Source: an uncultured Lentisphaerales bacterium
GTDB taxonomy: Bacteria > Verrucomicrobiota > Kiritimatiellia > RFP12 > JAAYNR01
Reading direction: 5' to 3'
Assembly (NCBI GenBank): GCA_964451945.1
Contig: CAYVKQ010000004.1
Span: 1-24,400 of the forward strand
DNA: 24,400 nt
The translations under genes and the position numbers were made by a program. Positions 10,958-24,235 of this stretch are shown here, in pieces. Every line of letters begins with the position of its first letter. The stretch's first letter is position 1. The notes beneath the pieces were generated by a model that did not search any database, was not told where the DNA came from, and saw nothing but the letters and a program-made list of their open reading frames with translations.

Positions 10958-10990
10958 CCTCTCGATATGTCCACCCAGGAGAAACCACGC

Positions 10991-13900
10991 ATGAAACACA
11001 TCCTCCTCGCCGCCTGCATCCTCGGTTCCGTCTGGACCGCTTCCGCCCAGGCGCCCGCCGCGCCCGCCGCACCCGCCGCCGCGGAAGACCCGCGCCTGAC
11101 CGCCTTCAACGAACTGCTGACGCGGGCGCAGCGGTCCACCGACGGCCTTTCGGTCGAAGAGATGACCAGGCTGCTCAACGAGGGGCGCGACCTCGGCCGG
11201 CCGCACCCCGTTTCGGGCATCGCACGCAGCTTCCTCTCGCGCCACCCGAATCCGGCGCCGACGGTTCTGCGCCTGGCGGCGCAGAACGCCATGCTCACCG
11301 GCGACTACCGCCTGGCCGCCTCGCGCTACCGGCAGTACTTCCGCAACGTGCCGGTCTCCGCCGAATCCTCCCAGGCCGCCGCCGAGCTGTTCTGCCTGCT
11401 GACCGACTATACCAAGCAGGTCGACGACGCCTTCGCGGCCAATGCCGACTACGGAGACAAGTACCGGCAGGCGCCGCAGGCCAGGCAGTATGACAGCTGG
11501 TTCCTCGAGCGGTGCTGGGACCGCCGCGCCACCGGCGCGATGGCCAAGCGCCTCGCCTCCATCTTTGCCGAAAAGCTCCCGCTCGAGCAGGAGCGCTACG
11601 CCTACTGGCACCATCTGGACCGGCTCATCGAGCGCCTCGGTTCGGTCATCCCCGAAAACACGGACGCCATCCTGCCGGGGCGGTCCATCATCCCGCTGAT
11701 CCGCGAAGACGCCGTCCGCGCGGCCCGGCTCGGCTTCTTCATCGACAACCTCGCCTTCCACGCGGCCCGCGCCGGCAAGGAGGCGGCTGCCCTCGCGCGC
11801 GAGTTCGAGCCGGTGCTCGCCTCGGCCAAAGCCTATCTCGACCAGGCGCCGACCGAGGCATCCCTGCGCCAGATCATGGCGGCCTTCGGCGGCGGTCCCG
11901 ACCGTCCCGACGAGTCGGTGTGGAACACGATGGCCGACAAGAAGCGCGACTTCTTCTTCTCCTACGCCTTCGGCAAGCTCCCCGAAGCGGAGCAGGTCCG
12001 CTTCCTGAACTGGGATTGGTGGGCGATGCCCGCCCGCCTGGCCACCCCCGAGCAGTGGATCACCCTGGGCGGCAAGCATCCGCAGGCGTTCACCAAGGCG
12101 GCGGGGATCTACCGGCTGCCGTGGGTCACGCAGACGACCAACGCGCCGCTCTACAAGGCGCAGGCCGCGTTTCTGGCCGGCGCCACCTTCGACGCCGCCG
12201 CCGTCATCACCGCCCTTGCGGCGGCCGGCGACGTGAACGGCTCGGTGCAGCACCTGCTGACCCAGTCGGCCTGGAGCATGCCGTTCGCCGACCGCGGCCG
12301 CGGCAACGCCGAGACGTTCCCGGACCTGGTCGTCAACCAGATCATCCCGGCGCGCGCCAATCTGCGCGGGTTGAGCGGCGGGGAGCGCGACGCATTCGTC
12401 TACGATGCGCAACTGGCGTTCATGGACGGTCCGTTCTGCAGCAGCGTGGCCACGCCCTTCTCGCCCAAGTCGGTCAGTTTCCTGCTCCGCAGCGTCTGGG
12501 GCTACTGCAGTCAGGACGCCGCCCGGCGCGACCGCTACGTCGCCCTCCTCGGCAAGCTGGCGTGGGTGCCGTTCGTCGGCGAGAAACGCGAAAAAGTGTT
12601 CGAGCCGGCGCTTACCGAGTTCCGCCGCTGGGCGCAGGAGACGCGCCGCCAGTTCGACGGACTGGCCGGCAAAACCGACGAGGCGTCGGTCAAAGCGCGC
12701 AAGGACCTGGAGGCGGTCGTCGCGCAGATCGCCAAGATCGAGGAGGCGTTCAAGCAGGCGGTCGAGACCGATCCCGACCCGGCCAAGGCGCCCAACCCGC
12801 AGTGCCGCGACCTCGCGGCCGCCATCAAGGCGCAGGAAGCGGGCGACGCCGCCGCCACCGCCACCGCCGCCAAGGCGCTCTACGCGCCGATCCGCGAGTA
12901 CCAGAAGAACAAGACGCCGTTCGGCGAGGCGCTGCTCGGCTTCCTGATGACCCCGCGCGACGCCAAGCTCGCCTGCGAAGAGGCGCAGGTCGCCACGCTC
13001 GCCGACCAGATCGGGCTGCGGCTGGGCACGCCCGCCTCCGTGCGCGGCGCCCGCGAATGCGTGCGCCAGTTCTCCGCCCGCGCCGGCTGGCGGTTCGACT
13101 GGACCCTGCGCCCCAGCAAGGAGGACGACGCCCTGCGCGATCAGATCGCCGACGTGCTGGCCAAGGCGATCGAGGCCCGCACCGCCAAGGACCAGTGGGA
13201 CGGCGAGCTGTTCACCTGGTACCGCGGCGTGGTCAAACAGGAGAGCGAGCAGGCGCAGGCGCTGGTCAGCGCGCTCATCGAGCGCGACATCTTCACCAAA
13301 CAGAACGTCAGCCTGTGGCACCCCGGGCCGACCTGCAGCGCCATGGCCCTCATCCGCAACGAATTTCCGTCGCTGCGCGAGAAGTACCCGGTCGAAACCT
13401 GGTTCGACGACCGCATGGTGGACGAGATCAGGCGCACCGGCAAGGTCGACGACGCCTATTGGAACTACGGCCACGACCGTCTGAAAAAGGTGGCCAATGC
13501 CCTGGCGGAGCGCTTCACCGCCGACATTTCCTACACCTTCGTCGGCACGCCGGCGGCGCCCGCCGTCTACTCGCGCGACCAGTTCAACGCCCTCTCGTGG
13601 CGCGTGCTCAACGCCGACGCCCCGCTCGTCGGCGCCTACCTGGACAAGATCCAGGCGGCCTACGGTAAAACCCGCTTCGACCGCCCCGCCTCCGGCGCGG
13701 TCGCGATCACCCAGATGTCGGCCGACACCCCCGAGGGCCGCAAGGCCTTCTTCGACCGGGTGCGCGACTACACGGCGCGCGCCAAGGCGATGCCCTACGC
13801 CATCGGCCTGCCGACGCTGCCGCAGCTCAACAACCTGTCGATCGACGGCACCACCCCGCTCACCGACGCGGAACTCGCCGCGCTGGCCGAGTGCTTCCGC

Positions 13901-16900
13901 TACTGCCGCTGGACCGGGTGGAACGGCACCGAGGAGCGCCTGATGACCCTGATCCACAGCGGCTTCGCCGCGCGCGGCCGTTTCGGCGAGCTGCTGCCGC
14001 TGATCCCGGAAATGTGGCGCGTCGCCTACGAGCAGAACCGCCGCGAGACGATGCTGCTGCTCTCCGACTTCACCTCCAAGCTCATGGAGAGCGGCGCGGC
14101 GATTGCCGCCGCCACCTACAGCGTCACCGGTCTCGAGGTGGCGGGCGACCGGCTCCCCGAAGACATCCGCAACTCCCTGACCGCCCTGCGGACGAAGTCC
14201 CAGGCCGAAGCGGGCGGCGGCCTGCTGGTCGAGCGTTCCGACCGCCGCTACCCGATCCTCGCCGCGCAGGCGCTCTTCCACGCCGGCCGACTCGACAGCG
14301 CCTGGGAACACTACCTGCAGGCGCCGCAGCTCGCCCTCTCCGAGTACAAGGACCTCGACCTCGGCTTCACCATCTGGCTGGTCGAGCGCCGCACGACGAT
14401 GGGGCAGTTCGACCAGGCCGACGAACTGGCCCGCACGCTCATCCAGTGGATCGACGCCGCCCCGCAGGGCTTCGACCCCGAAACCCGGACGCAGATGCTG
14501 ATCGCCTACGCCGACATCGCCTTCGCCCGCCAGGAATACCCGCGCGCCCGCGCCCAGTACGAGCGCGTTGCCGTGGCGCGCGAATTCGCCGGCACCTTCG
14601 GCGCCAAGCGCGCCGAGTTGAAGATCGCCGAGGTCGACCGCCTGACGCGCCACTACGACGCCGCCTACGAACGGCTCGACAAGCTCGACCGCCAGCGCGA
14701 CACCGCCATCCAGGCCGAGGCGCGCTACCAGATGGCGCTGCTGAAATTCGACCAGGAGGACTACGCCGGCGCCCGCGACGCGATCAACCGCGTCTTCGCC
14801 ATCGCCCCCAGCCATCCGCAGGCGGGACTGCTGGAGGGCGAGCTGAACGTCCGCACCAAGAAACTGGTCGAGGCGACCGAGCTGAAGATCGGCCTCTCCG
14901 CCGACCAGCAGACGCTCATCCCCGGCCGCCCCCTGCGGGTCGGCCTCGAGGACCGCACCCTCGCCGTCGTGGGCAAGACGACCGACATCGAGATCCGCGT
15001 CTGGACCGACTCGGGCGACGAGGAGGTCTTCATGCTCCTGCCGTTCGGCGACTCCAAGACCAAGTTCCGCGGCGAAATCGCCACGGCGCTCGCCCCCACC
15101 AAGAAGGGCGACCGGCTGCTGCAGGTCCTCGGCCGCGACAAGGTCCACTACGGGTTCTCCGAGCGTTTCCGCAAGGCCGCCGGCATCGGCGCCGTCGAGA
15201 CCGTCACCGTCGAGGTCATCACCGATCCCGAGCTCTACGCCTCCTCGGGACGCATCCTTTCGCGCGAGGAGCTGGAGGAGAAGGCGCTCGAGCAAATGAT
15301 CCGCCAGCGCGAGCGGATCGAAGAGGAGCGCAACGCGCCGCTCAGCACCGTCCGCGCCGCCAACGAGGTCAAGCCCGGCAACCCCATCTACGTCCGCGTC
15401 GTCGATCCCGACCGCAGCGGAACGCCGCAGAAGGACAAGGTGGTCATCCGCGCCTCCAGCAGCAGCGGCGACGCCGTGCAACGGTTTGAAATCGAGGAGA
15501 CGGAAACCCATTCCGGCGTTTTCGAGGGGCGCCTGCCCACCGCGTCGGCCTCCGCCACCGCCTTCGCATCCGACACCGAGGAGGGGCGTCAGGCCAACTA
15601 CGTCATCGCCGCCGACCCGAACCTGCCGCCGTGGGTGGCGCTGGGGGACAAGAACCGCAACAAGCTCTTCACCGTCGACCTCAACAACAACCTCACCCTC
15701 GGCTCGCTCTCGCTGCTGGCCGACGTCACCGGCCGCGCGATCAAACGGTTCGCGGTGCAGACCTCGATGAACGGCAGCGACTACACCACTGTGGCGACAT
15801 GGCCCGCCGACATGCCGGCGTGGGACGCGGCGCTGCGCATCCGCATGGTTCGCTACGGCGGGCGCAACGCGGCGCCGGCGAACCTGAAGATGTTCAAGGA
15901 GTATTTCGCCTACGGACATGTCGTCCAGGATGCGCCGATGGTGGTCGCCGAAGGCAAAACCTCCGCCGATCTGCGCCAGACGATCCGCACCGCGGAGAAA
16001 GAGCTGCAGATGGGTCGGACCGCCTGGGTGCTGGCCCATGTACAGGGGACCTTCTACGTGCCCGAACGCCGCAAGCGGACGTTCCGCCTCGATCCCAAGA
16101 ACCGGCTGCAGAATGTGAAATACATCCTGGCCATCGACGGCGCCGAAGGCCCCTCGCCGCTCGAGCACCCCGTTTCGCTCGCCAAGGGCTACCACACGCT
16201 CGACCTCTACGCGGCCGTCCACCTGAACACGCAGGCGGCGTACGAGCTGCTGTGGGACATCGCGGAGGATCCCTACATGGCCCGCGTCCCCGAAACCGCC
16301 TTCACCGCGGCCGAGTGGGACAAGGAGACGCCCCCCGCCGGATTCACGCCCGCCAAACTGACCCCGAACGAGGCCGGCACGAAATTCGCGATCGCCTTCG
16401 CCTCCAACACCACCGCGCGCCTGGTCCGCTTCGGCATCTGTGATTTCGAATCGGACGCGCCCGCCATCCGCAAGATCGGCCTCACCGGCGCAGACGGCAA
16501 GGTCCTCCTGCCGGCGGCCGAGGATGTGCTCGCCCTGCGCAACAACCAGATCCTCGAGATCGTCCCAGGCGACCGCGTCACGATCGCCTACGAAGACCCC
16601 TCCGTGATCACCCGCGAGCGCCAGAACACCGAAACCTTCCTGAGCGCGACCTTCTACAACGCCGAGGTCGGCGCCTACTTCGTCGAAACGGTGGTCGACC
16701 CCTACGACAACGTGCGCCGTCCGCTCTTCGTGCCGATGCGGCGCTACCAGGCGGGTGAACCGGTGACCGTGTTTGTCCAGGACCCCGACGCCGACGAGAC
16801 CGAGGAGAACGACAGTGTCGTCTTCCATGTGCGGACGACCGCCGGCAAGCAGATCGAGGTGAAGGCGGTGGAAACCGACAAGCACGCCGGCATGTTCGCC

Positions 16901-19069
16901 AGCCGCATCTTCCCGGTGGCCGGCGAGCCGAAGCGGCCCACCGAAATAACGGTCGCCTCGGGCGACGACATCCAGATCGTCTACCGCGACGAGAAGAATA
17001 CCGACTACGGCATCCCGTGGGACCGCAGCTACACCCTCGAACAGGCGGCGCCCACCCCCCCCGAGCTGCGCGTCTTCACCTACGACTCGCGCCTGCTCGC
17101 CTCCAACGAACTGGCGGCTGTCGCCGCGCGGATGCCCGCCGTGGCGACGGGTGAAGTGGTGCCGATCACCCGCACCCTCAATGCCGTCCGCCCGGTGAAA
17201 CCGAAACCCGACACCCCCCCCGTGACGCTGCTCGGCGCGCCGCTGATTGTCGAACTGCGCCATCCCTCGCTGGCGATCTCGCCGCTGAGCGAGGCCGAAT
17301 TGGTCGTCCAGACCTCCGCCGCGCGCAAGCAGGCCGGCGTCGCCGAAACGGCGCCGTTCGACCCGTCGCTGCCGGGGACCATCCGCTACCGCATGGGGAT
17401 CGTCGACCTGCGGATGCCGAAGGCGCCCGAAGGCTACGAGAAGATCAGCCTCGTCGGCAACCCGTTCGCCATGGATCCGCTGGAGGACGGACGCTTCTCG
17501 TTTGTCATCCCGACGGTCCTTGGCGGCCTGGCCGATATGGACACCTCCACCGAAGTCGATGAGCGCCAGTACCGCATCGATGACGAGAACGTCCACGTGG
17601 TGCCGGTCGCCTGCCTCACCGACAAGGGCGACCCGCGCTCGATCCGCCGCTTGTACAAGCTGCCGCCGCTCCACGTCCGGCCCGACGACACGGTCCGCAT
17701 CGCGGTCAACACCGCCGGCCCCAAGGAGCCGCCGCAGTGGCAGGTCCAGGATGTCTCCTTCACCGCCGACACCATGCTCGACGTGATGGACCAGCGCTAT
17801 CAGAAGACCGTCGACGCCTTCCATGTCGGCGAGCGCCTCTACCTGCGCGTGATCGATCCCATGGCCGACAAGAGCGGCGACAAGGACAGGATCTCCCTCT
17901 CCCTCCTGGTGAACAGCGCCCCCGCGGACGCCAAGCCGGTGGAGCTGACCGAGACCTTCGAATACACCGGCGTCTTCAAGGGCAACGTCCAGCTGGTCTA
18001 CGAGGGGGTGAAGAACGAAACCCCCGCGTCCGACGCGCTCGCCGTCCCCTACGGCGCCGCCGTGTCGCTCAAGTACGCGCCGCGCGAAGGGATCGTCGTG
18101 GAGTGCCAGGTGGCCGTGCGCAAGGGCGCCGACGGCGAAGTGCTGCCCTTCACCAAACGGTTCCAGGACACCGAGATCGCCGTGCAGACGCAGTTCACCA
18201 TGGCCGAGGCCTACTTTGAAATGGCCAAGAAGCACCGGGCGCTGAAGGAGGAAGAAGTCGCCCGCCGCGGCATCGCCCAGGGGAAGAAGCTGCTCGAGGA
18301 GGCGATCCGCGACTATCCCAAGACCGACGCCCGCGTGCAGGCCGACTACCTGCTCGCCAACCTCGCCTTCGAGGAGGCGGAGCAGACGGAGAACGAGGAT
18401 CTGCGCAAGAAGCTCTTCGTCGAGGCGATCACCCGCTTCAGCGACCTGATCGCCGGCTACCCCGACAGCGAGTACGCGCCGAAGTCGCAGTTCAAGAAGG
18501 CGCTCGTCTTCGAACGGATGGGCGAAATCGACGCGGCGTGCGAGGAGTACGTCAAGCTCTCCTACCGCTACCCGGAGAACGAGCTGGTCGCCGAGACGAT
18601 CGCCCGCCTAGGTCAGTATTTCATGACCAAGGGCAAGGAGATCGAAGAGCGCCTCGGCGCCGAGACCGACCTGGTGCAGAAGGAGAAGATCCGGATGCAG
18701 GCCAACGAGTTCTACCGCACGGCCGCGCAGGTGTTCTCGCGCCTCGCCGAACGCTTCCCCGAGCACACGCTCGCCGCCAAGACCCGGGTCCTCTCCGCCG
18801 AGAACTGGCTCCGCGGCCAGGAGCTGAAGAAGGCGGTCACGGTCTACGAGGCGATCATCGCCGACAAGAAGGTTCCGCCCGAACTGGTCGCGCAGTCGAT
18901 GTATTGGTGCGGCGACAGCTTCCTCCGCATGAAGAATTTCACCGACGCCTACCGCATGCTCAAGCGGCTCACCTGGGACTATCCCGAAAGCGTGTGGGCG
19001 AAGTACGCGCGCGGCCGCCTGACCGAGCCCGAGCTGGCCCGGATCGAGGAAATGGAGATGAAGGAGTAA
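10991..19069 (+). CDS. Giant (~2,692 aa) secreted protein: helical N-half, TPRs, repeated beta-modules, F5/8 type C-like and PA14-like domains, C-terminal TPRs
   Basis: SD AGGAG at 10977-10981 before ATG 10991 (10967 is an alternative). Signal peptide MKHILLAACILGSVWTASA-Q followed by an APAAP linker. Uninterrupted 8-kb frame with strong C/G-ending codon bias. Confidence 0.9.
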   Translation: MKHILLAACILGSVWTASAQAPAAPAAPAAAEDPRLTAFNELLTRAQRSTDGLSVEEMTRLLNEGRDLGRPHPVSGIARSFLSRHPNPAPTVLRLAAQNAMLTGDYRLAASRYRQYFRNVPVSAESSQAAAELFCLLTDYTKQVDDAFAANADYGDKYRQAPQARQYDSWFLERCWDRRATGAMAKRLASIFAEKLPLEQERYAYWHHLDRLIERLGSVIPENTDAILPGRSIIPLIREDAVRAARLGFFIDNLAFHAARAGKEAAALAREFEPVLASAKAYLDQAPTEASLRQIMAAFGGGPDRPDESVWNTMADKKRDFFFSYAFGKLPEAEQVRFLNWDWWAMPARLATPEQWITLGGKHPQAFTKAAGIYRLPWVTQTTNAPLYKAQAAFLAGATFDAAAVITALAAAGDVNGSVQHLLTQSAWSMPFADRGRGNAETFPDLVVNQIIPARANLRGLSGGERDAFVYDAQLAFMDGPFCSSVATPFSPKSVSFLLRSVWGYCSQDAARRDRYVALLGKLAWVPFVGEKREKVFEPALTEFRRWAQETRRQFDGLAGKTDEASVKARKDLEAVVAQIAKIEEAFKQAVETDPDPAKAPNPQCRDLAAAIKAQEAGDAAATATAAKALYAPIREYQKNKTPFGEALLGFLMTPRDAKLACEEAQVATLADQIGLRLGTPASVRGARECVRQFSARAGWRFDWTLRPSKEDDALRDQIADVLAKAIEARTAKDQWDGELFTWYRGVVKQESEQAQALVSALIERDIFTKQNVSLWHPGPTCSAMALIRNEFPSLREKYPVETWFDDRMVDEIRRTGKVDDAYWNYGHDRLKKVANALAERFTADISYTFVGTPAAPAVYSRDQFNALSWRVLNADAPLVGAYLDKIQAAYGKTRFDRPASGAVAITQMSADTPEGRKAFFDRVRDYTARAKAMPYAIGLPTLPQLNNLSIDGTTPLTDAELAALAECFRYCRWTGWNGTEERLMTLIHSGFAARGRFGELLPLIPEMWRVAYEQNRRETMLLLSDFTSKLMESGAAIAAATYSVTGLEVAGDRLPEDIRNSLTALRTKSQAEAGGGLLVERSDRRYPILAAQALFHAGRLDSAWEHYLQAPQLALSEYKDLDLGFTIWLVERRTTMGQFDQADELARTLIQWIDAAPQGFDPETRTQMLIAYADIAFARQEYPRARAQYERVAVAREFAGTFGAKRAELKIAEVDRLTRHYDAAYERLDKLDRQRDTAIQAEARYQMALLKFDQEDYAGARDAINRVFAIAPSHPQAGLLEGELNVRTKKLVEATELKIGLSADQQTLIPGRPLRVGLEDRTLAVVGKTTDIEIRVWTDSGDEEVFMLLPFGDSKTKFRGEIATALAPTKKGDRLLQVLGRDKVHYGFSERFRKAAGIGAVETVTVEVITDPELYASSGRILSREELEEKALEQMIRQRERIEEERNAPLSTVRAANEVKPGNPIYVRVVDPDRSGTPQKDKVVIRASSSSGDAVQRFEIEETETHSGVFEGRLPTASASATAFASDTEEGRQANYVIAADPNLPPWVALGDKNRNKLFTVDLNNNLTLGSLSLLADVTGRAIKRFAVQTSMNGSDYTTVATWPADMPAWDAALRIRMVRYGGRNAAPANLKMFKEYFAYGHVVQDAPMVVAEGKTSADLRQTIRTAEKELQMGRTAWVLAHVQGTFYVPERRKRTFRLDPKNRLQNVKYILAIDGAEGPSPLEHPVSLAKGYHTLDLYAAVHLNTQAAYELLWDIAEDPYMARVPETAFTAAEWDKETPPAGFTPAKLTPNEAGTKFAIAFASNTTARLVRFGICDFESDAPAIRKIGLTGADGKVLLPAAEDVLALRNNQILEIVPGDRVTIAYEDPSVITRERQNTETFLSATFYNAEVGAYFVETVVDPYDNVRRPLFVPMRRYQAGEPVTVFVQDPDADETEENDSVVFHVRTTAGKQIEVKAVETDKHAGMFASRIFPVAGEPKRPTEITVASGDDIQIVYRDEKNTDYGIPWDRSYTLEQAAPTPPELRVFTYDSRLLASNELAAVAARMPAVATGEVVPITRTLNAVRPVKPKPDTPPVTLLGAPLIVELRHPSLAISPLSEAELVVQTSAARKQAGVAETAPFDPSLPGTIRYRMGIVDLRMPKAPEGYEKISLVGNPFAMDPLEDGRFSFVIPTVLGGLADMDTSTEVDERQYRIDDENVHVVPVACLTDKGDPRSIRRLYKLPPLHVRPDDTVRIAVNTAGPKEPPQWQVQDVSFTADTMLDVMDQRYQKTVDAFHVGERLYLRVIDPMADKSGDKDRISLSLLVNSAPADAKPVELTETFEYTGVFKGNVQLVYEGVKNETPASDALAVPYGAAVSLKYAPREGIVVECQVAVRKGADGEVLPFTKRFQDTEIAVQTQFTMAEAYFEMAKKHRALKEEEVARRGIAQGKKLLEEAIRDYPKTDARVQADYLLANLAFEEAEQTENEDLRKKLFVEAITRFSDLIAGYPDSEYAPKSQFKKALVFERMGEIDAACEEYVKLSYRYPENELVAETIARLGQYFMTKGKEIEERLGAETDLVQKEKIRMQANEFYRTAAQVFSRLAERFPEHTLAAKTRVLSAENWLRGQELKKAVTVYEAIIADKKVPPELVAQSMYWCGDSFLRMKNFTDAYRMLKRLTWDYPESVWAKYARGRLTEPELARIEEMEMKE

Positions 19070-19072
19070 CCG

Positions 19073-19480
19073 GTGACGCCGCACCGCCGCATTCCCGACG
19101 CCCTGCCGCCGCCGGCCGCGCAGCCGCTCGCGGCCGACGAGGCCGTGCGCCTGCTCGGCAAGCGGCGCGCCGCCCTGCTGCGGCGCGACGCCGGGGGCGA
19201 GGCGGTCCTGGCGGTGATGCCGACGGGCAGCGCCGCCGATACCGGGAGCTGGTTCGGCAAACGGCGCGTCTGCCTGGCGTTCACGCCGACGGCGCTGCTG
19301 CTCTTCGCCACCGGGCCGCGGCCGCTCTGCCGGCGCATCCCCTTGACGGAACTGCGGCAGACGCAGTACAACACGGTCACCGGAGAATTGGTTTTTGCAC
19401 CGGCCAGCGTGCCGGTGCGGGCAGTCGCCCTGCCGCCGCTGGAGGCGGCGCGGGCGTTGGCGCAACTAGGAAGGGGTTAG
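19073..19480 (+). CDS. Small hypothetical protein (135 aa)
   Basis: GTG start 6 nt after AAGGAG; it fills the gap between the giant gene and exbB with 3-nt spacing on both sides. The C-half has a globular-looking core (GSWFGKRRVCLAFTPTALLLFATG...YNTVTGELVFAP). Confidence 0.7.
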   Translation: MTPHRRIPDALPPPAAQPLAADEAVRLLGKRRAALLRRDAGGEAVLAVMPTGSAADTGSWFGKRRVCLAFTPTALLLFATGPRPLCRRIPLTELRQTQYNTVTGELVFAPASVPVRAVALPPLEAARALAQLGRG

Positions 19481-19483
19481 GTT

Positions 19484-20143
19484 ATGTTGGATACGATTAT
19501 TGCGGGCGGACCCTTGATGATCATCCTGATGATCGAAAGCGTGCTGGCGATCGCCGTGGCGCTCGACCGCGCGGCGGCCTTCCGCGCGAACGGCCGCGTG
19601 GACGTCCGGTCGCTCCGCACCAAGGTGCAGAACCAGATGCTGGAGTCCAAATACGACGAGGCGCTGGCCGCCTGCCTGACGACCCCCGGCCCCGTCTCGG
19701 CGGTCATGGCCTCGGGCCTGCAGGCGTACCTCAAGCACAAGGCGGTCACCGGCAACGCCGAAACCCTGCGCGCGATCGTGCAGGACGCGATGACCGACTA
19801 CGCGCGCCTGGCAATCAACACCGTCGAAAAGCGGATGAACATTCTCTCGTTCATCGGCACCTCGGCGCCGCTCTTCGGCATGACCGGAACTGTGACCGGC
19901 ATGATCAAATCGTTCAACGCCATCGCCTCCGCCGGCGCCATGGAGGGCGGCGTGGTCGCCGCCGGCATCGCCGAAGCGCTGATCACCACCGCCGCCGGCC
20001 TGCTCATCGCCATGATGGCGGTCATCCCGCACCACTACTTCACCAGCCGCTCGGAGGACATCGAGATCCAGATCGCCGAGGCCGGCTCCGAAATCCTGGA
20101 CCACATCTCATTGACCCATCACGCCGCCGCCGCGACCGCGTGA
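19484..20143 (+). CDS. MotA/TolQ/ExbB proton channel family protein
   Basis: N-terminal TM (GGPLMIILMIESVLAIAVALDR), a cytoplasmic loop, then TM2-TM3 IGTSAPLFGMTGTVTGMIKSF...GIAEALITTAAGLLIA, the family signature. Confidence 0.95.
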   Translation: MLDTIIAGGPLMIILMIESVLAIAVALDRAAAFRANGRVDVRSLRTKVQNQMLESKYDEALAACLTTPGPVSAVMASGLQAYLKHKAVTGNAETLRAIVQDAMTDYARLAINTVEKRMNILSFIGTSAPLFGMTGTVTGMIKSFNAIASAGAMEGGVVAAGIAEALITTAAGLLIAMMAVIPHHYFTSRSEDIEIQIAEAGSEILDHISLTHHAAAATA

Positions 20144-20162: not shown

Positions 20163-20579
20163 ATGCCGTTCGAACCCTTCAAGAAAGAGAAGCAGGAGAG
20201 CACGGTTCCGACCGATTCGCTGTCGGATATCGCGTTTTTGCTGATCATCTTCTTCATCCTGGCCACCTCGATCCAGAAGATCGCCGGGTTCCGCACCGAC
20301 CTCCCCTCGGGCGAGCGCAACCAGCAGGTCCAGAAAGCCGACGACAAGACGCCGACCGTCGGGTTGAAGGGCGGACGCATCCTGTACAACGAGCAGGAGT
20401 CGACGCTGGATGAACTCCGCAAGAAGCTGGCGCTGCTGCGCCTGCTGGAACGGGCCGAGGACCGCCGCGTGGTGCTGCTCGACGCCGCGCCCGACACCGC
20501 CTACCAGACCTACTACGAGGTCATGGCCGCCATCACCGCCGCCCACGGGGTGATCGGCATCCTGACGGAGGAGGAATGA
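20163..20579 (+). CDS. ExbD/TolR family protein (copy 1)
   Basis: TM with the conserved Asp (SLSDIAFLLIIFFIL), followed by a periplasmic domain ending VVLLDAAPDTAYQTYYEVMAAITAAHG. Confidence 0.92.
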   Translation: MPFEPFKKEKQESTVPTDSLSDIAFLLIIFFILATSIQKIAGFRTDLPSGERNQQVQKADDKTPTVGLKGGRILYNEQESTLDELRKKLALLRLLERAEDRRVVLLDAAPDTAYQTYYEVMAAITAAHGVIGILTEEE

Positions 20580-20580
20580 G

Positions 20581-20997
20581 ATGAAACTCCACCGCAGGCG
20601 GAAGAAGGCAATCTCGGTGCCGACCACCAGCATGGGCGACATCGCCTTTCTTCTCATCATCTTTTTCATGGTGTGCAGCAACTTCGTCAAGGAATCGGGC
20701 ATCAAGGTGGCGCCGCCGCTTGCCGACGACATCGATTCGGTCAAGAACGCGCCGCTGTCGGTGGTGATCGACGAGAACAACGACATCCACGTCAACGGCA
20801 AACCGGTCTCCAGCGGGATGGCGGTGGAGGCGATCGTCGAGTCGGCGGTGGAGGGAAAGACGACCGACGAGGAGCGGATGGTGCTGTTCAAGTGCGACCG
20901 CAGCGTCGCCAAGACCGTCTTTGAACCGGTGCTCGAAGCCATCACGCGCGCCGGCGGGATGCTGGTGGCGGTGGGCGAGAAGCGCGCCGAAAACTGA
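20581..20997 (+). CDS. ExbD/TolR family protein (copy 2)
   Basis: SD GGAGGAGG; TM SMGDIAFLLIIFFMV with the conserved Asp; C-terminal VLFKCDRSVAKTVFEPVLEAITRAG. Confidence 0.92.
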   Translation: MKLHRRRKKAISVPTTSMGDIAFLLIIFFMVCSNFVKESGIKVAPPLADDIDSVKNAPLSVVIDENNDIHVNGKPVSSGMAVEAIVESAVEGKTTDEERMVLFKCDRSVAKTVFEPVLEAITRAGGMLVAVGEKRAEN

Positions 20998-21015: not shown

Positions 21016-21468
21016 ATGACACAAAACAAGAATCCGACCACGCAGAATCTGGACCGTCTGCTGACGATCTTCTCCGGCAGGCGCATCGCCTTCTGGATCG
21101 TTGTCGCGCTCGCCGCGCACGTGGTGCTGATCGGCGGCTGCTCGCTCAATACCATCCGCGACCGCTGGATCGACCCCGAAGGGGCGGCGCAGCGCAAGGC
21201 CGCCGCGCTGGCCGAACAGCAGCGCCTGGCCAAGGAGGCCGCGGCCGCGGCCGCCCCGGCACTGGCGGGGCTGACCAACGCCGCCGCCGTGGTGCGCGAC
21301 GTCAACGCGCCGGCGGCCACCAATGCGGCGGCCGCTCCCGGCGCCATCCCCGCCGAACGCACCAACACGCCGACCGCCCAGCGGGTCACCGAGGTCGCCA
21401 AACCCGAAGAGATGCCGAAGCTCGGCAACGATCTCGGCATCTCGATCGAGGACACCGGCATCCGTTGA
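21016..21468 (+). CDS. Single-pass membrane protein with His in the TM and an Ala/Pro-rich extension (mini TonB/TolA-like; hypothetical)
   Basis: Hydrophobic segment IAFWIVVALAAHVVLIGG, then a helical AAQRKAAALAEQQRLAKEAAA stretch and an Ala/Pro/Thr-rich tail; purine-rich SD upstream. Confidence 0.75.
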   Translation: MTQNKNPTTQNLDRLLTIFSGRRIAFWIVVALAAHVVLIGGCSLNTIRDRWIDPEGAAQRKAAALAEQQRLAKEAAAAAAPALAGLTNAAAVVRDVNAPAATNAAAAPGAIPAERTNTPTAQRVTEVAKPEEMPKLGNDLGISIEDTGIR

Positions 21469-21518
21469 GCCCTCCCGGCGCGGACCGCCAGCGCGCGATT
21501 CCCGCCGACAGCCGCACC

Positions 21519-23099
21519 ATGGACAAACGTCTCCAATTTTCCTGGCCGCCGATCCTGTGCCTCCTCATGGGCATGGCGGCGGGCGTGTGCACCCGTTTCG
21601 CGCTCGTGCTGCCGCGGGCCTACCTGGTGTGGTGCGACCGGCACCCCGCGATTGCGCGGGTCTTCGCCGAAGAGGGGGTCGATCTGTTGATCCGTTTCAC
21701 GGCGGGGGTCGCCGGACTCTCGGCGGCCGCCCTCGCGGTCATGGCGTTTGTCGCCCTCTTCATCCGCAGCGCCACCACGCTCGGCCTCTTTCGCAAGACA
21801 TGCCTCCTCTTCTACGCCACGGCGTGGATGTGCGGCGTCGTGGCGGTGCGCGCGACCCACCTGCTCATCGCGCGCGAACTGAGCCTCGGCGGCGCGGACG
21901 GCGAGCCGTTCAACGCCTACACCATCTTCCTCCTCCGCTGGCGGCTCCTCTGGCCCGTGATCGCCGTCTCGCTCGGAGTCGCCTATCTCTACATCCTCGC
22001 GTGGCGCCGCGCCGCGATCGACGACTGGCTGGGCGGCGGCGGTCCGTCCGAACCCGCCACCGGCGACCGCTTCCTGGAGAACCTCCGCACCCACGGCCGC
22101 GACCCGCGCTTCCGCAAGAGCGTGTGGTCGAGCGTCGGCGTCCACCTGTTCGTCGTCCTGATCCTCCCCTGGCTGCTCACCCTCGACGGCTGCACCCGCA
22201 TCAACCCCTACGGCGTCCCCAAGGGGAGCGGCACGCCCACGGTCACCGCCCCCAAGATCGTGAAGGTGAAGAAAAAGAAGAAGCGGATCCTGGTCAATCC
22301 CAATTCTGCCATCCTGTTCAACATCCCCACCCTCGACGACTCCAAAATCGCGGAGGAGGTTGACCAGGAGTCGCGCGTCACCTATGCGGCCGACCCGAAC
22401 CGCGTCGGCGCCATGGGCGCGGGCGGCGGCACGGGCGGCGGCTGGCCCGACGGCATGGACGACGCGGTGGTCCGCTTCATCCGCCTGAAGTACGACGGCT
22501 CCGGCTGGGACGACGGCATGGACGCGGTTTCCCGCGCCGACATGAACTTTCTCGACATGTTCCGCAAGGTCACCAAGTTCCGCACCGCTGCGCAGTCCGA
22601 GAGCCACCCGATCGCCGCGCTGGCCAAGTACCCCAAGGGGTTCGCGCCGCCGTTCGTCTACATGACCGGCGACTACGACATCCGCGTCGCCGACAGCGAC
22701 GTAAAGATCCTGCGCGAGTACCTGATGGGCGGCGGCATGCTCTTCGCCGACTGCGGCAGCCCCCGCTGGAACCACAGTTTCCGCAGCTTCATCCGCCGCG
22801 TCTTTCCGGGCGAGTCCCTGCTGACCGTCTCCGACGACGACGTCATCTTCCAGATCCCCTACACCTTCGCCAACGGCGCGCCGCCGCTGTGGCACCACGG
22901 CGGCTATGACGCCATGGGGATCAAGTACAAGGGGCGCTGGGCCGTCTTCTACCATCCCGGCGATGTCAACGACGCCTGGAAGAACGACCGGGGCGGACTC
23001 GAACCCAAGAAGGCCGAAGGGGCGATGGAGTTGGGAATCAACATCATCTACTACTCGTTCTCGAACTATCTCGAACTGACGCGGAAGTACCGCAAATGA
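21519..23099 (+). CDS. Polytopic membrane protein with C-terminal DUF4159 domain
   Basis: About 4 N-terminal hydrophobic helices, a fifth TM (SSVGVHLFVVLIL), and a Lys- and Gly-rich linker. The C-terminus shows the DUF4159 pattern IRLKYDGSGWD...PFVYMTG...LREYLMGGGMLFAD...FRSFIRRVFP...VFYHPGDVNDAW...LGINII. An alternative TTG start at 21465 overlaps the upstream stop. Confidence 0.88.
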   Translation: MDKRLQFSWPPILCLLMGMAAGVCTRFALVLPRAYLVWCDRHPAIARVFAEEGVDLLIRFTAGVAGLSAAALAVMAFVALFIRSATTLGLFRKTCLLFYATAWMCGVVAVRATHLLIARELSLGGADGEPFNAYTIFLLRWRLLWPVIAVSLGVAYLYILAWRRAAIDDWLGGGGPSEPATGDRFLENLRTHGRDPRFRKSVWSSVGVHLFVVLILPWLLTLDGCTRINPYGVPKGSGTPTVTAPKIVKVKKKKKRILVNPNSAILFNIPTLDDSKIAEEVDQESRVTYAADPNRVGAMGAGGGTGGGWPDGMDDAVVRFIRLKYDGSGWDDGMDAVSRADMNFLDMFRKVTKFRTAAQSESHPIAALAKYPKGFAPPFVYMTGDYDIRVADSDVKILREYLMGGGMLFADCGSPRWNHSFRSFIRRVFPGESLLTVSDDDVIFQIPYTFANGAPPLWHHGGYDAMGIKYKGRWAVFYHPGDVNDAWKNDRGGLEPKKAEGAMELGINIIYYSFSNYLELTRKYRK

Positions 23100-24235
23100 T
23101 CGACAAGCTTGTGCCAGTCATGGGGGCGTGGGGCGTCCGGGCGCTGATCGTCTGGGTCGCGGCCCTGGTCGTCCTGTTGTTCGGGAGCTTCATCCGCGCC
23201 CGCCCCAAAGCCTACCTGCTCGCCCTGGCGCTGGTGGTGGCGGCGGCCTTCTGCGCCCGCAGGAATCTGGACACCTGGTTCGCGTCCATCCGGCTCGACC
23301 GCACCGACGAGATCAACGCTGCGCTGGCCTCCCGCGCGCCGCAGGAAGGGCTCGCCACCGTCGTACGCTTCGCCGAGGACGATCCCGAAGACCGCGTCGA
23401 GGGCGGCGTGACCCGCACCGCTCCGGCCGTCCCCGCCTGGCGCGAGGGCGGACCCAAGGCGCGCGGCGGCGGGGTGTTGACCAACGCGGTCGCCGGAGCC
23501 GCCGCCGCCGACGGCACGGCGGCCGACCCCGCGGCGGGCGGGGAGGCGGTCATCTACATGAAGGGCGACCAGCTCAGCCTCGTCCGCCAGATCGAGCGCG
23601 GCAACCGCCTGATAATCCGCGCGCTGACGCTGCTGATCGTGCTGGCGATTCTCTACGACTATGTCACGGCCTTCAATTCCGTGCGTAGCACGCGGCTGGC
23701 GCTGCCGCTCTCGGGGGCGCTGATCGACAGCCTGTCCGCCAAGTCGCGGGCGCTGATGATCCGTCCCGACGTCGGCAAGCGCTGGCGCCCCGAGCCCTTC
23801 CTCGAACGCGCCGTGCGCAAAGGGGAGAACGTGGTCTACTTCGGCCAGAAGCCGATCTGGGAGGGGCGCGCCTCGCTGCCGCGGCTGGTGCTCATCGGCC
23901 TGCCGCTCCTTCGCGTACCGCTCCTCCGCTACGGCGCCCCGGGACAGCCGACGGGGAGCGAGTTCGCCTTCGACGCCGCCTGGTTCAGCCGCTATGTCGT
24001 GACGGCCGCCGGCGACGCCCCCTGCCGCGCGATGCTCGAAGACTTCGTCGACATTCTGCACGAGCGCCGCCGCTCCGGCGCCCGCGCCCGCCGTACGCTG
24101 GTTCTCGCCTGGGACCGCGACGAAACGCTGGAGAAGCCGTTCCTGGTGACGCTGGCGAAACTCGCCGACGAGGCGAACCTCTCGCTCTTCGTCTGGACCC
24201 GCCCCGCCGGCGGCGGCAAGCCGGCAACCGCCTGA
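23096..24235 (+). CDS. Hypothetical membrane protein (3 predicted TMs, low-complexity linker, C-terminal alpha/beta domain)
   Basis: ATGA overlap with the DUF4159 gene stop; hydrophobic helices ALIVWVAALVVLLFG, AYLLALALVVAAAF and LIIRALTLLIVLAILY; codon bias similar to the rest of the operon. Confidence 0.8.
   Translation: MIDKLVPVMGAWGVRALIVWVAALVVLLFGSFIRARPKAYLLALALVVAAAFCARRNLDTWFASIRLDRTDEINAALASRAPQEGLATVVRFAEDDPEDRVEGGVTRTAPAVPAWREGGPKARGGGVLTNAVAGAAAADGTAADPAAGGEAVIYMKGDQLSLVRQIERGNRLIIRALTLLIVLAILYDYVTAFNSVRSTRLALPLSGALIDSLSAKSRALMIRPDVGKRWRPEPFLERAVRKGENVVYFGQKPIWEGRASLPRLVLIGLPLLRVPLLRYGAPGQPTGSEFAFDAAWFSRYVVTAAGDAPCRAMLEDFVDILHERRRSGARARRTLVLAWDRDETLEKPFLVTLAKLADEANLSLFVWTRPAGGGKPATA

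Follow-up and report, generated by a model that had tools for sequence, protein, structure and literature searches.

Gene content of the locus

The DNA analysed here, referred to as the window, is a stretch of 24,400 nt from an uncultured Lentisphaerales bacterium (assembly GCA_964451945.1, contig CAYVKQ010000004.1), and all coordinates are those of this whole stretch. It contains a gene cassette, encoded entirely on the + strand, in which one ExbB gene and two ExbD genes are followed by a small gene and by the gene of a 544-residue protein with five membrane helices and a DUF4159 domain (21465..23099, from the open reading frame list and its translation). According to the original prediction, the fifth helix of this protein resembles the membrane anchor of TonB and the protein is possibly the force-transducing arm of the motor. 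The start of the gene is uncertain, either TTG at 21465 or ATG at 21519, and the finding is unaffected by the choice.

The DUF4159 protein begins with a bundle of four membrane helices (residues ~27-179, 21543..22001), recognized by hydropathy and in the AlphaFold2 (AF2) model, which is variable or absent in relatives. A cytoplasmic motif defined by column counts, P-A-x-G-D-R-x-L-E-N-L-R-T-H-G-x-D-P-x-F/Y-R-K-S (22053..22121), is located directly before the fifth transmembrane helix (22122..22184). This helix, the candidate motor-docking element by its motif, its conservation and the AF2 model, comprises S223-x3-H227-x6-L234-x3-L238 and an invariant P235, and has at its periplasmic end the pair G242-C243 (22188..22193), each present in 119/119 close homologues. 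It is followed by a conserved periplasmic connector (residues 244-336, 22194..22472), delimited from near-invariant columns and AF2, in which column counts identified a P-Y-x-V-P-K-G-S-G block, a Lys run (22254-22286), the motif N-P-x-S-A-I-x-F and the Gly-rich motif G-x-G-G-G-x-G-G-W-P-D-G (22407-22454). Finally, the DUF4159 domain (residues 337-532, 22473..23060), assigned by Pfam, the genome scan and AF2, is predicted to be periplasmic and to adopt a glutamine-amidotransferase-like alpha/beta fold.

The ExbB/TolQ-type stator protein (19484..20143) matches Pfam MotA_ExbB (2.3e-26) and the TolQ/ExbB chains of the PDB, query residues 11-197 corresponding to TolQ 20-206. The two ExbD/TolR paralogues are located at 20163..20579 (Pfam ExbD 7.3e-15) and 20581..20997 (4.7e-16), and the transmembrane Asp is present in both translations. 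The slot of tonB, next in order, is occupied by a 150-residue single-pass protein (21016..21468) in which the alignment of six orthologues identified an A-x3-His helix, a low-complexity Ala/Pro linker and an acidic C-terminal tail, with no head.

At the head of the cassette is a giant secreted protein of 2700 residues (10967..19069) with Pfam matches to tetratricopeptide repeat (TPR) and YfiO families, and most of the related loci have a giant homologue of this gene upstream. A 135-residue protein without family assignment (19073..19480) precedes exbB; it is kept in 6/6 loci and in most of 80 genome loci, and its motif Y-N-x-x-T-G-E is conserved across phyla. Downstream of the DUF4159 gene, a 379-residue membrane protein, also without family assignment (23096..24235), is present in most related loci and shows, in an alignment with four orthologues, the motifs R-F-A-E-D and D-Y-L-x-R-F-N, again conserved across phyla. 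By open reading frame list and Pfam, the cluster in the window contains neither a TonB-dependent receptor gene nor TolB or Pal genes.

The motif helix and its conservation

The motif was found where the original prediction had placed it, as S223 (AGC, 22131)-V-G-V-H227 (CAC, 22143)-LFVVLI-L234 (CTC, 22164) in the reading frame 21465-23099, spanning 22131-22166. As had been claimed, three of the four positions of the Ser-His-Leu-Ser (SHLS) motif are matched (S223, H227 and L234), the +15 position being L238 and not Ser; Ser-His is the conserved core of this motif, the Leu-Ser being less conserved in TonB (PMC12215075). Hydropathy and AF2 agree on five membrane helices, and the motif is in the fifth of these hydrophobic segments (residues ~220-240), after which come the strings PKGSGTPTVTAPKIVKVKKKKKR and GAMGAGGGTGGGW and then DUF4159. 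Among 2841 hydrophobic segments taken from a crude gene set of this genome, 8 contain S-x3-H-x6-[LIVMF], so the probability of a chance match on one given helix is about 0.3%.

A word-indexed search retrieved 978 homologues at E<=1e-3, the closest with 97% identity and likewise 544 residues, and the set of close homologues comprises 119 proteins with at least 45% identity and 480-580 residues. An exhaustive search with residues 200-544 gave 1235 representatives of 50%-identity clusters at E<=1e-3, 105 of them covering the helix. The His on which the original prediction depended is conserved: H227 is present in 117/119 close homologues, in 82 of the 105 representatives (78%) and in 66/71 of the loci where the first transmembrane helix (TM1) of ExbB has its Ser. 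S223 and P235 are invariant in the close homologues (119/119 each), L234 is Leu, Ile or Val in 111/119 and L238 is Leu in 110/119. In the 105 representatives the Ser position is Ser in 68 (65%) and Ala in 18, and the Pro is kept in 92. On a helical wheel of the close homologues, S219, S223, H227, V230/I231, L234, P235, L237 and L238 fall on one face, within an arc of ~160 degrees.

Basic residues are found four before the Ser (R-K-SVWS-S-VGV-H), with a spacing like that in TolA of E. coli (K-R-AIII-S-AVL-H; PMC12215075). The cytoplasmic motif before the helix is conserved at G200 (117/119), D201 (119/119), P214 (118/119) and R217 (118/119) and is kept in single-pass relatives such as P0135; TonB, in contrast, has no counterpart of this stretch (G-D-R-x-L-E-N-L-R-T-H-G-x-D-P-x-F-R-K-S). 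Of the pair closing the helix, Gly is present in 85 and Cys in 75 of the 105 representatives. No invariant partner Cys for C243 was found in the close homologues, where C430 is Cys in only 101/119.

Anchor architecture and topology

The helices of the N-terminal bundle in the AF2 model (residues 27-59, 72-99, 103-136 and 151-179) have a predicted local distance difference test score (pLDDT) above 90, and the helix 220-240 has one of 70-77, below that of the bundle. A structure search with the bundle gave only generic helical-bundle matches (Z 9-12), taken as uninformative. The stretch before the motif helix ranges from ~20 to 870 residues in relatives, with the helix constant, and at least 8 representatives are single-pass proteins lacking the bundle and keeping S-x3-H and the Pro. 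These relatives have the plain layout of TonB and are located in the tonB slot, as checked on two contigs: P0164 (locus L038) comes after a giant TPR protein, ExbB, ExbD and a 126-residue A-x3-His protein, and P0216 after ExbD and a 122-residue protein. Since they keep S-x3-H beside exbB-exbD without any bundle, the conserved face of the helix probably does not serve for packing on the protein's own bundle.

Both architectures were identified in tandem in one locus (L016:1-2429), where a full-length DUF4159 gene with five helices overlaps by 4 nt with a single-pass copy of 355 residues (P0135) downstream of it. Both copies have S-x3-H and the Gly-Cys pair.

The predicted topology is the one expected by the original prediction, with DUF4159 on the periplasmic side. 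The positive-inside count gives 16 Lys+Arg in the loops assigned to the cytoplasm versus 4 in the two periplasmic loops. The genome of the window contains six further DUF4159 domains (genome scan); of the DUF4159-only paralogues, those on contigs C47 and C2 have a signal peptide at the start, and so, probably, does the end-truncated protein on C170. One relative has a cytoplasmic FHA domain at the N-terminus and, by eye, five hydrophobic helices before DUF4159. From the charge bias, the paralogue signal peptides and the FHA relative together, DUF4159 is predicted to be most likely exposed to the periplasm.

Connector and DUF4159 head

The segment between helix and head had been called a TonB-like linker. 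Its position after the helix is as described, and its TonB-like character did not stand, with 8 Pro in 96 residues and a strongly conserved sequence. The connector also contains 13 Gly and 13 Lys+Arg and, in the AF2 model, one short helix (294-304). Its invariant or near-invariant columns are Y249, G254, G256, P258, K269-K273, P288, G318, G320, G326, W327 and G330, and a sequence so strongly conserved must be more than a spacer. Residues 241-260 have a pLDDT of 64-69, and residues 258-277 and 283-315 one below 50; short strand marks appear at 252-253 and 256 only. A Pro-rich or helical domain II spanning the periplasm, as in the three-domain definition of force transducers in PMC12204202, was not found in it. 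Judged by its residues, the segment is better described as a conserved connector than as a linker.

DUF4159 comes after the helix, as the original prediction had said. Pfam PF13709 covers residues 337-532 (E 5e-30; 105 bits, the cut-off being 25.9; full profile 1-202), and the pLDDT of the domain is above 90. The head has the same fold as Hoch_4089 of Haliangium ochraceum (PDB 4i66), a solved DUF4159 structure and its one strong structural match, which residues 335-533 of the model match with a Foldseek E of 2e-9 and, in VIA, a Z of 23 and a root-mean-square deviation of 1.8 A over 185 residues at 24% identity. The 4i66 chain comprises 200 residues and aligns to the head domain only, and the title of the entry gives no function. 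The next structural matches in VIA were class I glutamine amidotransferases (Z 8.6-9.1). A catalytic enzyme of this class was considered and rejected on the grounds of C430, which is Cys in 101/119 and Ala in 18/119 of the close homologues and Asn in distant ones. The invariant or near-invariant polar residues of the head (W348, D350, D359, N361, E379, H477, H478, H497, D503 and W505) suggest a defined binding or metal site.

Pfam gave DUF4159 only and NCBIfam nothing in this protein, so neither search identified a TonB_C, TonB_2 or TolA C-terminal domain. A head of the von Willebrand factor A (vWA) type was not found either, there being no VWA match in Pfam and no vWA chain among the 50 best VIA entries listed. 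Of the DUF4159-only paralogues on C47, C170 and C2, two have tandem DUF4159 domains and none has the His-helix, and no ExbB-family match was found on these three contigs. DUF4159 is named, in the literature searched, only in the Pfam database paper.

Another protein with this head was identified on contig C138 (L041:76-5490, + strand). In its open frame of 1805 residues, a vWA domain (residues 133-299) and a Pro-rich stretch are followed by two hydrophobic helices, the second with S-V-A-L-H, then by an Ala/Pro/Glu-rich linker of ~600 residues and by DUF4159 (residues 1409-1612). Its layout is that of a second arm, long like TolA and headed by DUF4159, and the contig is too short to show whether exbBD is upstream.

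Gene linkage

Linkage was analysed in 80 loci from species-representative genomes, 58 of them with at least 3.5 kb upstream. Where this length of upstream sequence was available and the match covered the helix, exbB was upstream in every locus (56/56) and two exbD genes in 54; the two DUF4159-only paralogue loci among the 58 have neither exbB nor exbD upstream. The order small gene, ExbB, ExbD, ExbD, small gene and DUF4159 gene was complete in 6/6 metagenome loci, labelled Verrucomicrobiae, Planctomycetota, Lentisphaerae and Magnetococcus, and in 7/7 evaluable genomes of the phylum of the window. The DUF4159-protein gene itself was identified in 8 of 150 sampled genomes of this phylum.

The genome of the window contains seven MotA/ExbB-family genes, but a TonB-type head is present in only two of its proteins (TonB_C on C42 and TonB_2 on C342), so that the majority of these motors must have partners of another kind. 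It also has four TonB-dependent receptor plug domains, none of them in the window, and TolB_N was not found in this 85%-complete assembly. No paper joining an Akkermansia mucin-locus term with ExbD was identified in the literature searched.

The headless protein and its covariation with ExbB

The 150-residue protein has, in six orthologues, a single helix with an invariant His and an Ala or Ser four residues before it. The helix is followed by a conserved juxtamembrane block, a variable Ala/Pro/Lys linker and a conserved acidic tail, D-L-G-I-S-I-[ED]-D-T. In the electron cryomicroscopy (cryo-EM) structures of E. coli, Ser16 and His20 of TonB contact Ser34 and Trp38 of ExbB, and Ser18 and His22 of TolA contact the equivalent Ser and Trp (PMC12215075). 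Ser19 in TM1 of the ExbB of the window aligns with TolQ Ser28, the counterpart of ExbB Ser34.

A simple form of covariation, in which the His-less relatives would be those without exbBD, failed, since the His-less lineages retain the cassette. The failure led to a finer result, namely that the ExbB TM1 Ser and the His of the small protein are lost along with the His of the DUF4159 helix. The three positions were tabulated for the 74 loci with ExbB available. Where ExbB position 19 is Ser (71 loci), the small-protein His is present in 64/64 loci in which its reading frame was found and the DUF4159 helix His in 66/71; where it is Phe or Gly (3 loci from two lineages), both His are absent in all (0/3 and 0/3). 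The pattern fits a use of the ExbB Ser by both helices, with the small protein apparently the more dependent one.

The placing of DUF4159 where the C-terminal domain of TonB normally sits stands in part. In its favour are the exbB-exbD-exbD linkage in 56/56 loci and the single-pass relatives in the tonB slot; against it, the anchor is polytopic, and the headless A/S-x3-His protein (21016-21468) holds the true tonB slot and covaries more tightly.

The cassettes of L035, L036 and L037 (and L015) are divergent, lacking the ExbB Ser (replaced by Phe or Gly) and both helix His, with the gene order kept. The small proteins of L015, L036 and L037 have in common a longer cytoplasmic N-terminal part, which in L015 contains a GYF_2 domain. 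L038 presents a variant with a single ExbD, and its ExbB has the canonical S-x3-W and I-P-A-V.

Comparison with known force transducers

The DUF4159 protein is like TonB and TolA of E. coli in four respects: an in-to-out helix has Ser-x3-His-x6-Leu in its cytoplasm-proximal half, the gene adjoins those of the motor, the helix is followed by a connector and a periplasmic head, and ExbB TM1 keeps the Ser that contacts the Ser-His pair. It is unlike them in lacking a TonB_C or TolA head and a domain II that is Pro-rich or long and helical, and in having a polytopic anchor and Leu in place of the last Ser of SHLS; in addition, the Trp partner of E. coli ExbB is absent from the cassette in the window. 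Sequence homology to TonB or TolA was sought with phmmer (residues 205-300 against all PDB chains) and discarded, the only match being a chance one to a Rh polypeptide (E 0.74).

The closest precedent is a 2025 study (PMC12204202) in which TonB-like force transducers with a vWA head were proposed from gene neighbourhood and AlphaFold 3 models. The proposal places these TonB-like anchors, whose head is not that of TonB, in TPR-tolQ-tolR-tolR loci found in Planctomycetes-Verrucomicrobia-Chlamydiae (PVC) bacteria (PMC12204202). The order of those loci (one TPR gene, one tolQ-like gene, two different tolR-like genes and the transducer) is the gene order of the window. Both designs have a Ser-x3-His membrane helix, a poorly ordered connector and a globular head not of TonB type, and both are in silico proposals with no known phenotype. 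Unlike the vWA transducers, the system described here has a DUF4159 head, an anchor that is the fifth of five helices and a separate headless His-helix protein between exbD and the transducer gene. The anchor of the vWA transducers is a single N-terminal helix, domain I of the definition in PMC12204202, which is present in the single-pass relatives and not in the protein of the window.

The Tichowtungia sequences in the supplement of PMC12204202 are single-pass, with S-x3-H35 and a vWA-type head. By eye, none of them contains DUF4159 motifs, and DUF4159 is unmentioned in the paper or its supplement. Identity with the published vWA transducers was rejected after the fold search and a reading of the published sequences. 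As the Tichowtungia sequences are single-pass and vWA-headed, the DUF4159 protein is a sibling of that design, differing from it in the head and in the polytopic anchor.

Interpretation and alternative explanations

On this evidence the DUF4159 protein has a better than even claim to be a motor-docked arm with DUF4159 as its head, and is probably a new form of the force-transmitting arms of bacterial envelope machines. By family membership, ExbB and the two ExbD proteins would form a proton-driven 5:2 motor. The fifth helix is predicted to run from cytoplasm to periplasm with Ser223 and His227 in its cytoplasm-proximal half, as in TonB and TolA, and may dock on the outer face of the ExbB pentamer near Ser19 of ExbB TM1. 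The conserved stretch after the helix might perhaps engage the periplasmic domains of ExbD, as the "motor box" of TonB and TolA does. Motor action would then pass through the connector of ~95 residues to the periplasmic DUF4159 head, which would bind a partner, with the giant TPR protein and a component of the outer envelope as possible candidates. The 150-residue His-helix protein would be a second docking partner on the same motor, probably the more obligate one, and this headless neighbour must be part of any model of the cassette.

Several observations weigh against the DUF4159 protein as an arm. The motif helix is the fifth of five and not a single N-terminal anchor, and the fourth SHLS position is Leu. 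The connector is neither Pro-rich nor of low complexity, and with no TonB or TolA chain retrieved by phmmer the likeness is at the level of the motif, homology not being shown. On the side of the motor, ExbB has Ile, Leu or Val in most loci (Ile here, at +4 to Ser19) and not the Trp that contacts His20 of E. coli TonB, and the Pro of the third transmembrane helix of ExbB comes four residues, one turn, later than in the TolQ alignment. The His of the DUF4159 helix has been lost (F, C, Y, L and Y) in five loci keeping the ExbB Ser and the small-protein His; with the cassette kept in them, this His is not indispensable for staying in the cassette. The His-less lineages, moreover, keep the whole cassette. 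Finally, the covariation rests on a small number of events, the genomes being related and therefore not independent.

The same five loci bear on an explanation in which the 150-residue headless protein is the sole TonB/TolA-like partner of the motor and the DUF4159 protein a static platform or assembly factor, its Ser and His binding the helix of the small protein or another subunit, with no force passing through DUF4159. In the small protein, which has the true tonB slot, the A/S-x3-His helix is invariant, the linker is of low complexity and the tail is conserved, and the His follows the ExbB Ser without exception (64/64 and 3/3), whereas the DUF4159 helix can lose its own His alone. However, S-x3-H is retained in the single-pass DUF4159 relatives, which show the complete TonB-like layout, and none of the loci without the ExbB Ser still has the His of the DUF4159 helix (0/3). 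Nor do the two partners exclude each other: two TolA helices are seen on one TolQR complex in cryo-EM (PMC12215075), which makes two partners on one motor plausible. A sole role for the small protein is for these reasons regarded as unlikely.

Two further explanations place the function of the conserved helix residues within the DUF4159 protein itself. Ser223, His227 and Pro235 could hold helix 5 against the four-helix bundle of the protein, or provide a polar or ion-binding site there, with no relation to motor docking, as the helix comes after a confidently modelled bundle and a polar pair is a common packing device in membrane helices. This is quite improbable given that at least 8 representatives keep S-x3-H and Pro without the bundle, two of them verified beside exbD, that the N-terminal module varies from 20 to 870 residues around a constant helix, and that helix 5 is modelled with a confidence of 70-77 versus more than 92 for the bundle. 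Helix 5 with its Gly-Cys could also be an internal lipoprotein-type signal, cut before Cys243 to release DUF4159 as a lipid-anchored periplasmic protein, and the basic stretch, the hydrophobic helix and the Gly-Cys invariant at its periplasmic end (119/119) do resemble a signal peptide II site. Yet the sequence here is L-D-G-C, and the -2 residue is R, V, Y or W in most homologues, a misfit to the lipobox [LVI][ASTVI][GAS]C; the cores of signal peptides are not conserved in sequence, as S, H and P of helix 5 are, and the Cys is absent in ~29% of representatives. The lipoprotein explanation was rejected for its poor lipobox fit and the conservation of the helix, and its likelihood is very slight.

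With the DUF4159 protein taken as a motor-docked arm, a wider picture can be offered tentatively, itself somewhat short of an even chance. The cassette may encode an undescribed proton-driven envelope machine of Planctomycetes/Verrucomicrobia-type bacteria in which two different TonB-like helices are carried simultaneously by a single ExbB5-ExbD/ExbD' motor, a headless arm with a peptide tail and a polytopic arm with a DUF4159 head, pulling on, or switched by, giant TPR/lectin-like proteins. The contact between the Ser of ExbB and the His of the arm would be the coupling point, lost jointly in at least two lineages.

The way in which the arm His varies with the TM1 Ser of ExbB amounts to a natural experiment on the Ser-His coupling network seen in E. 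coli by cryo-EM. The cassette is frequent among PVC bacteria, a group with a poorly understood envelope biology. DUF4159 is widespread, and a place at the working end of a TonB-like arm would give the domain a testable context. If true, it would bring a second type of head, after vWA, to the recent proposal that the work of Ton/Tol-type motors goes beyond nutrient import and the Tol-Pal system.

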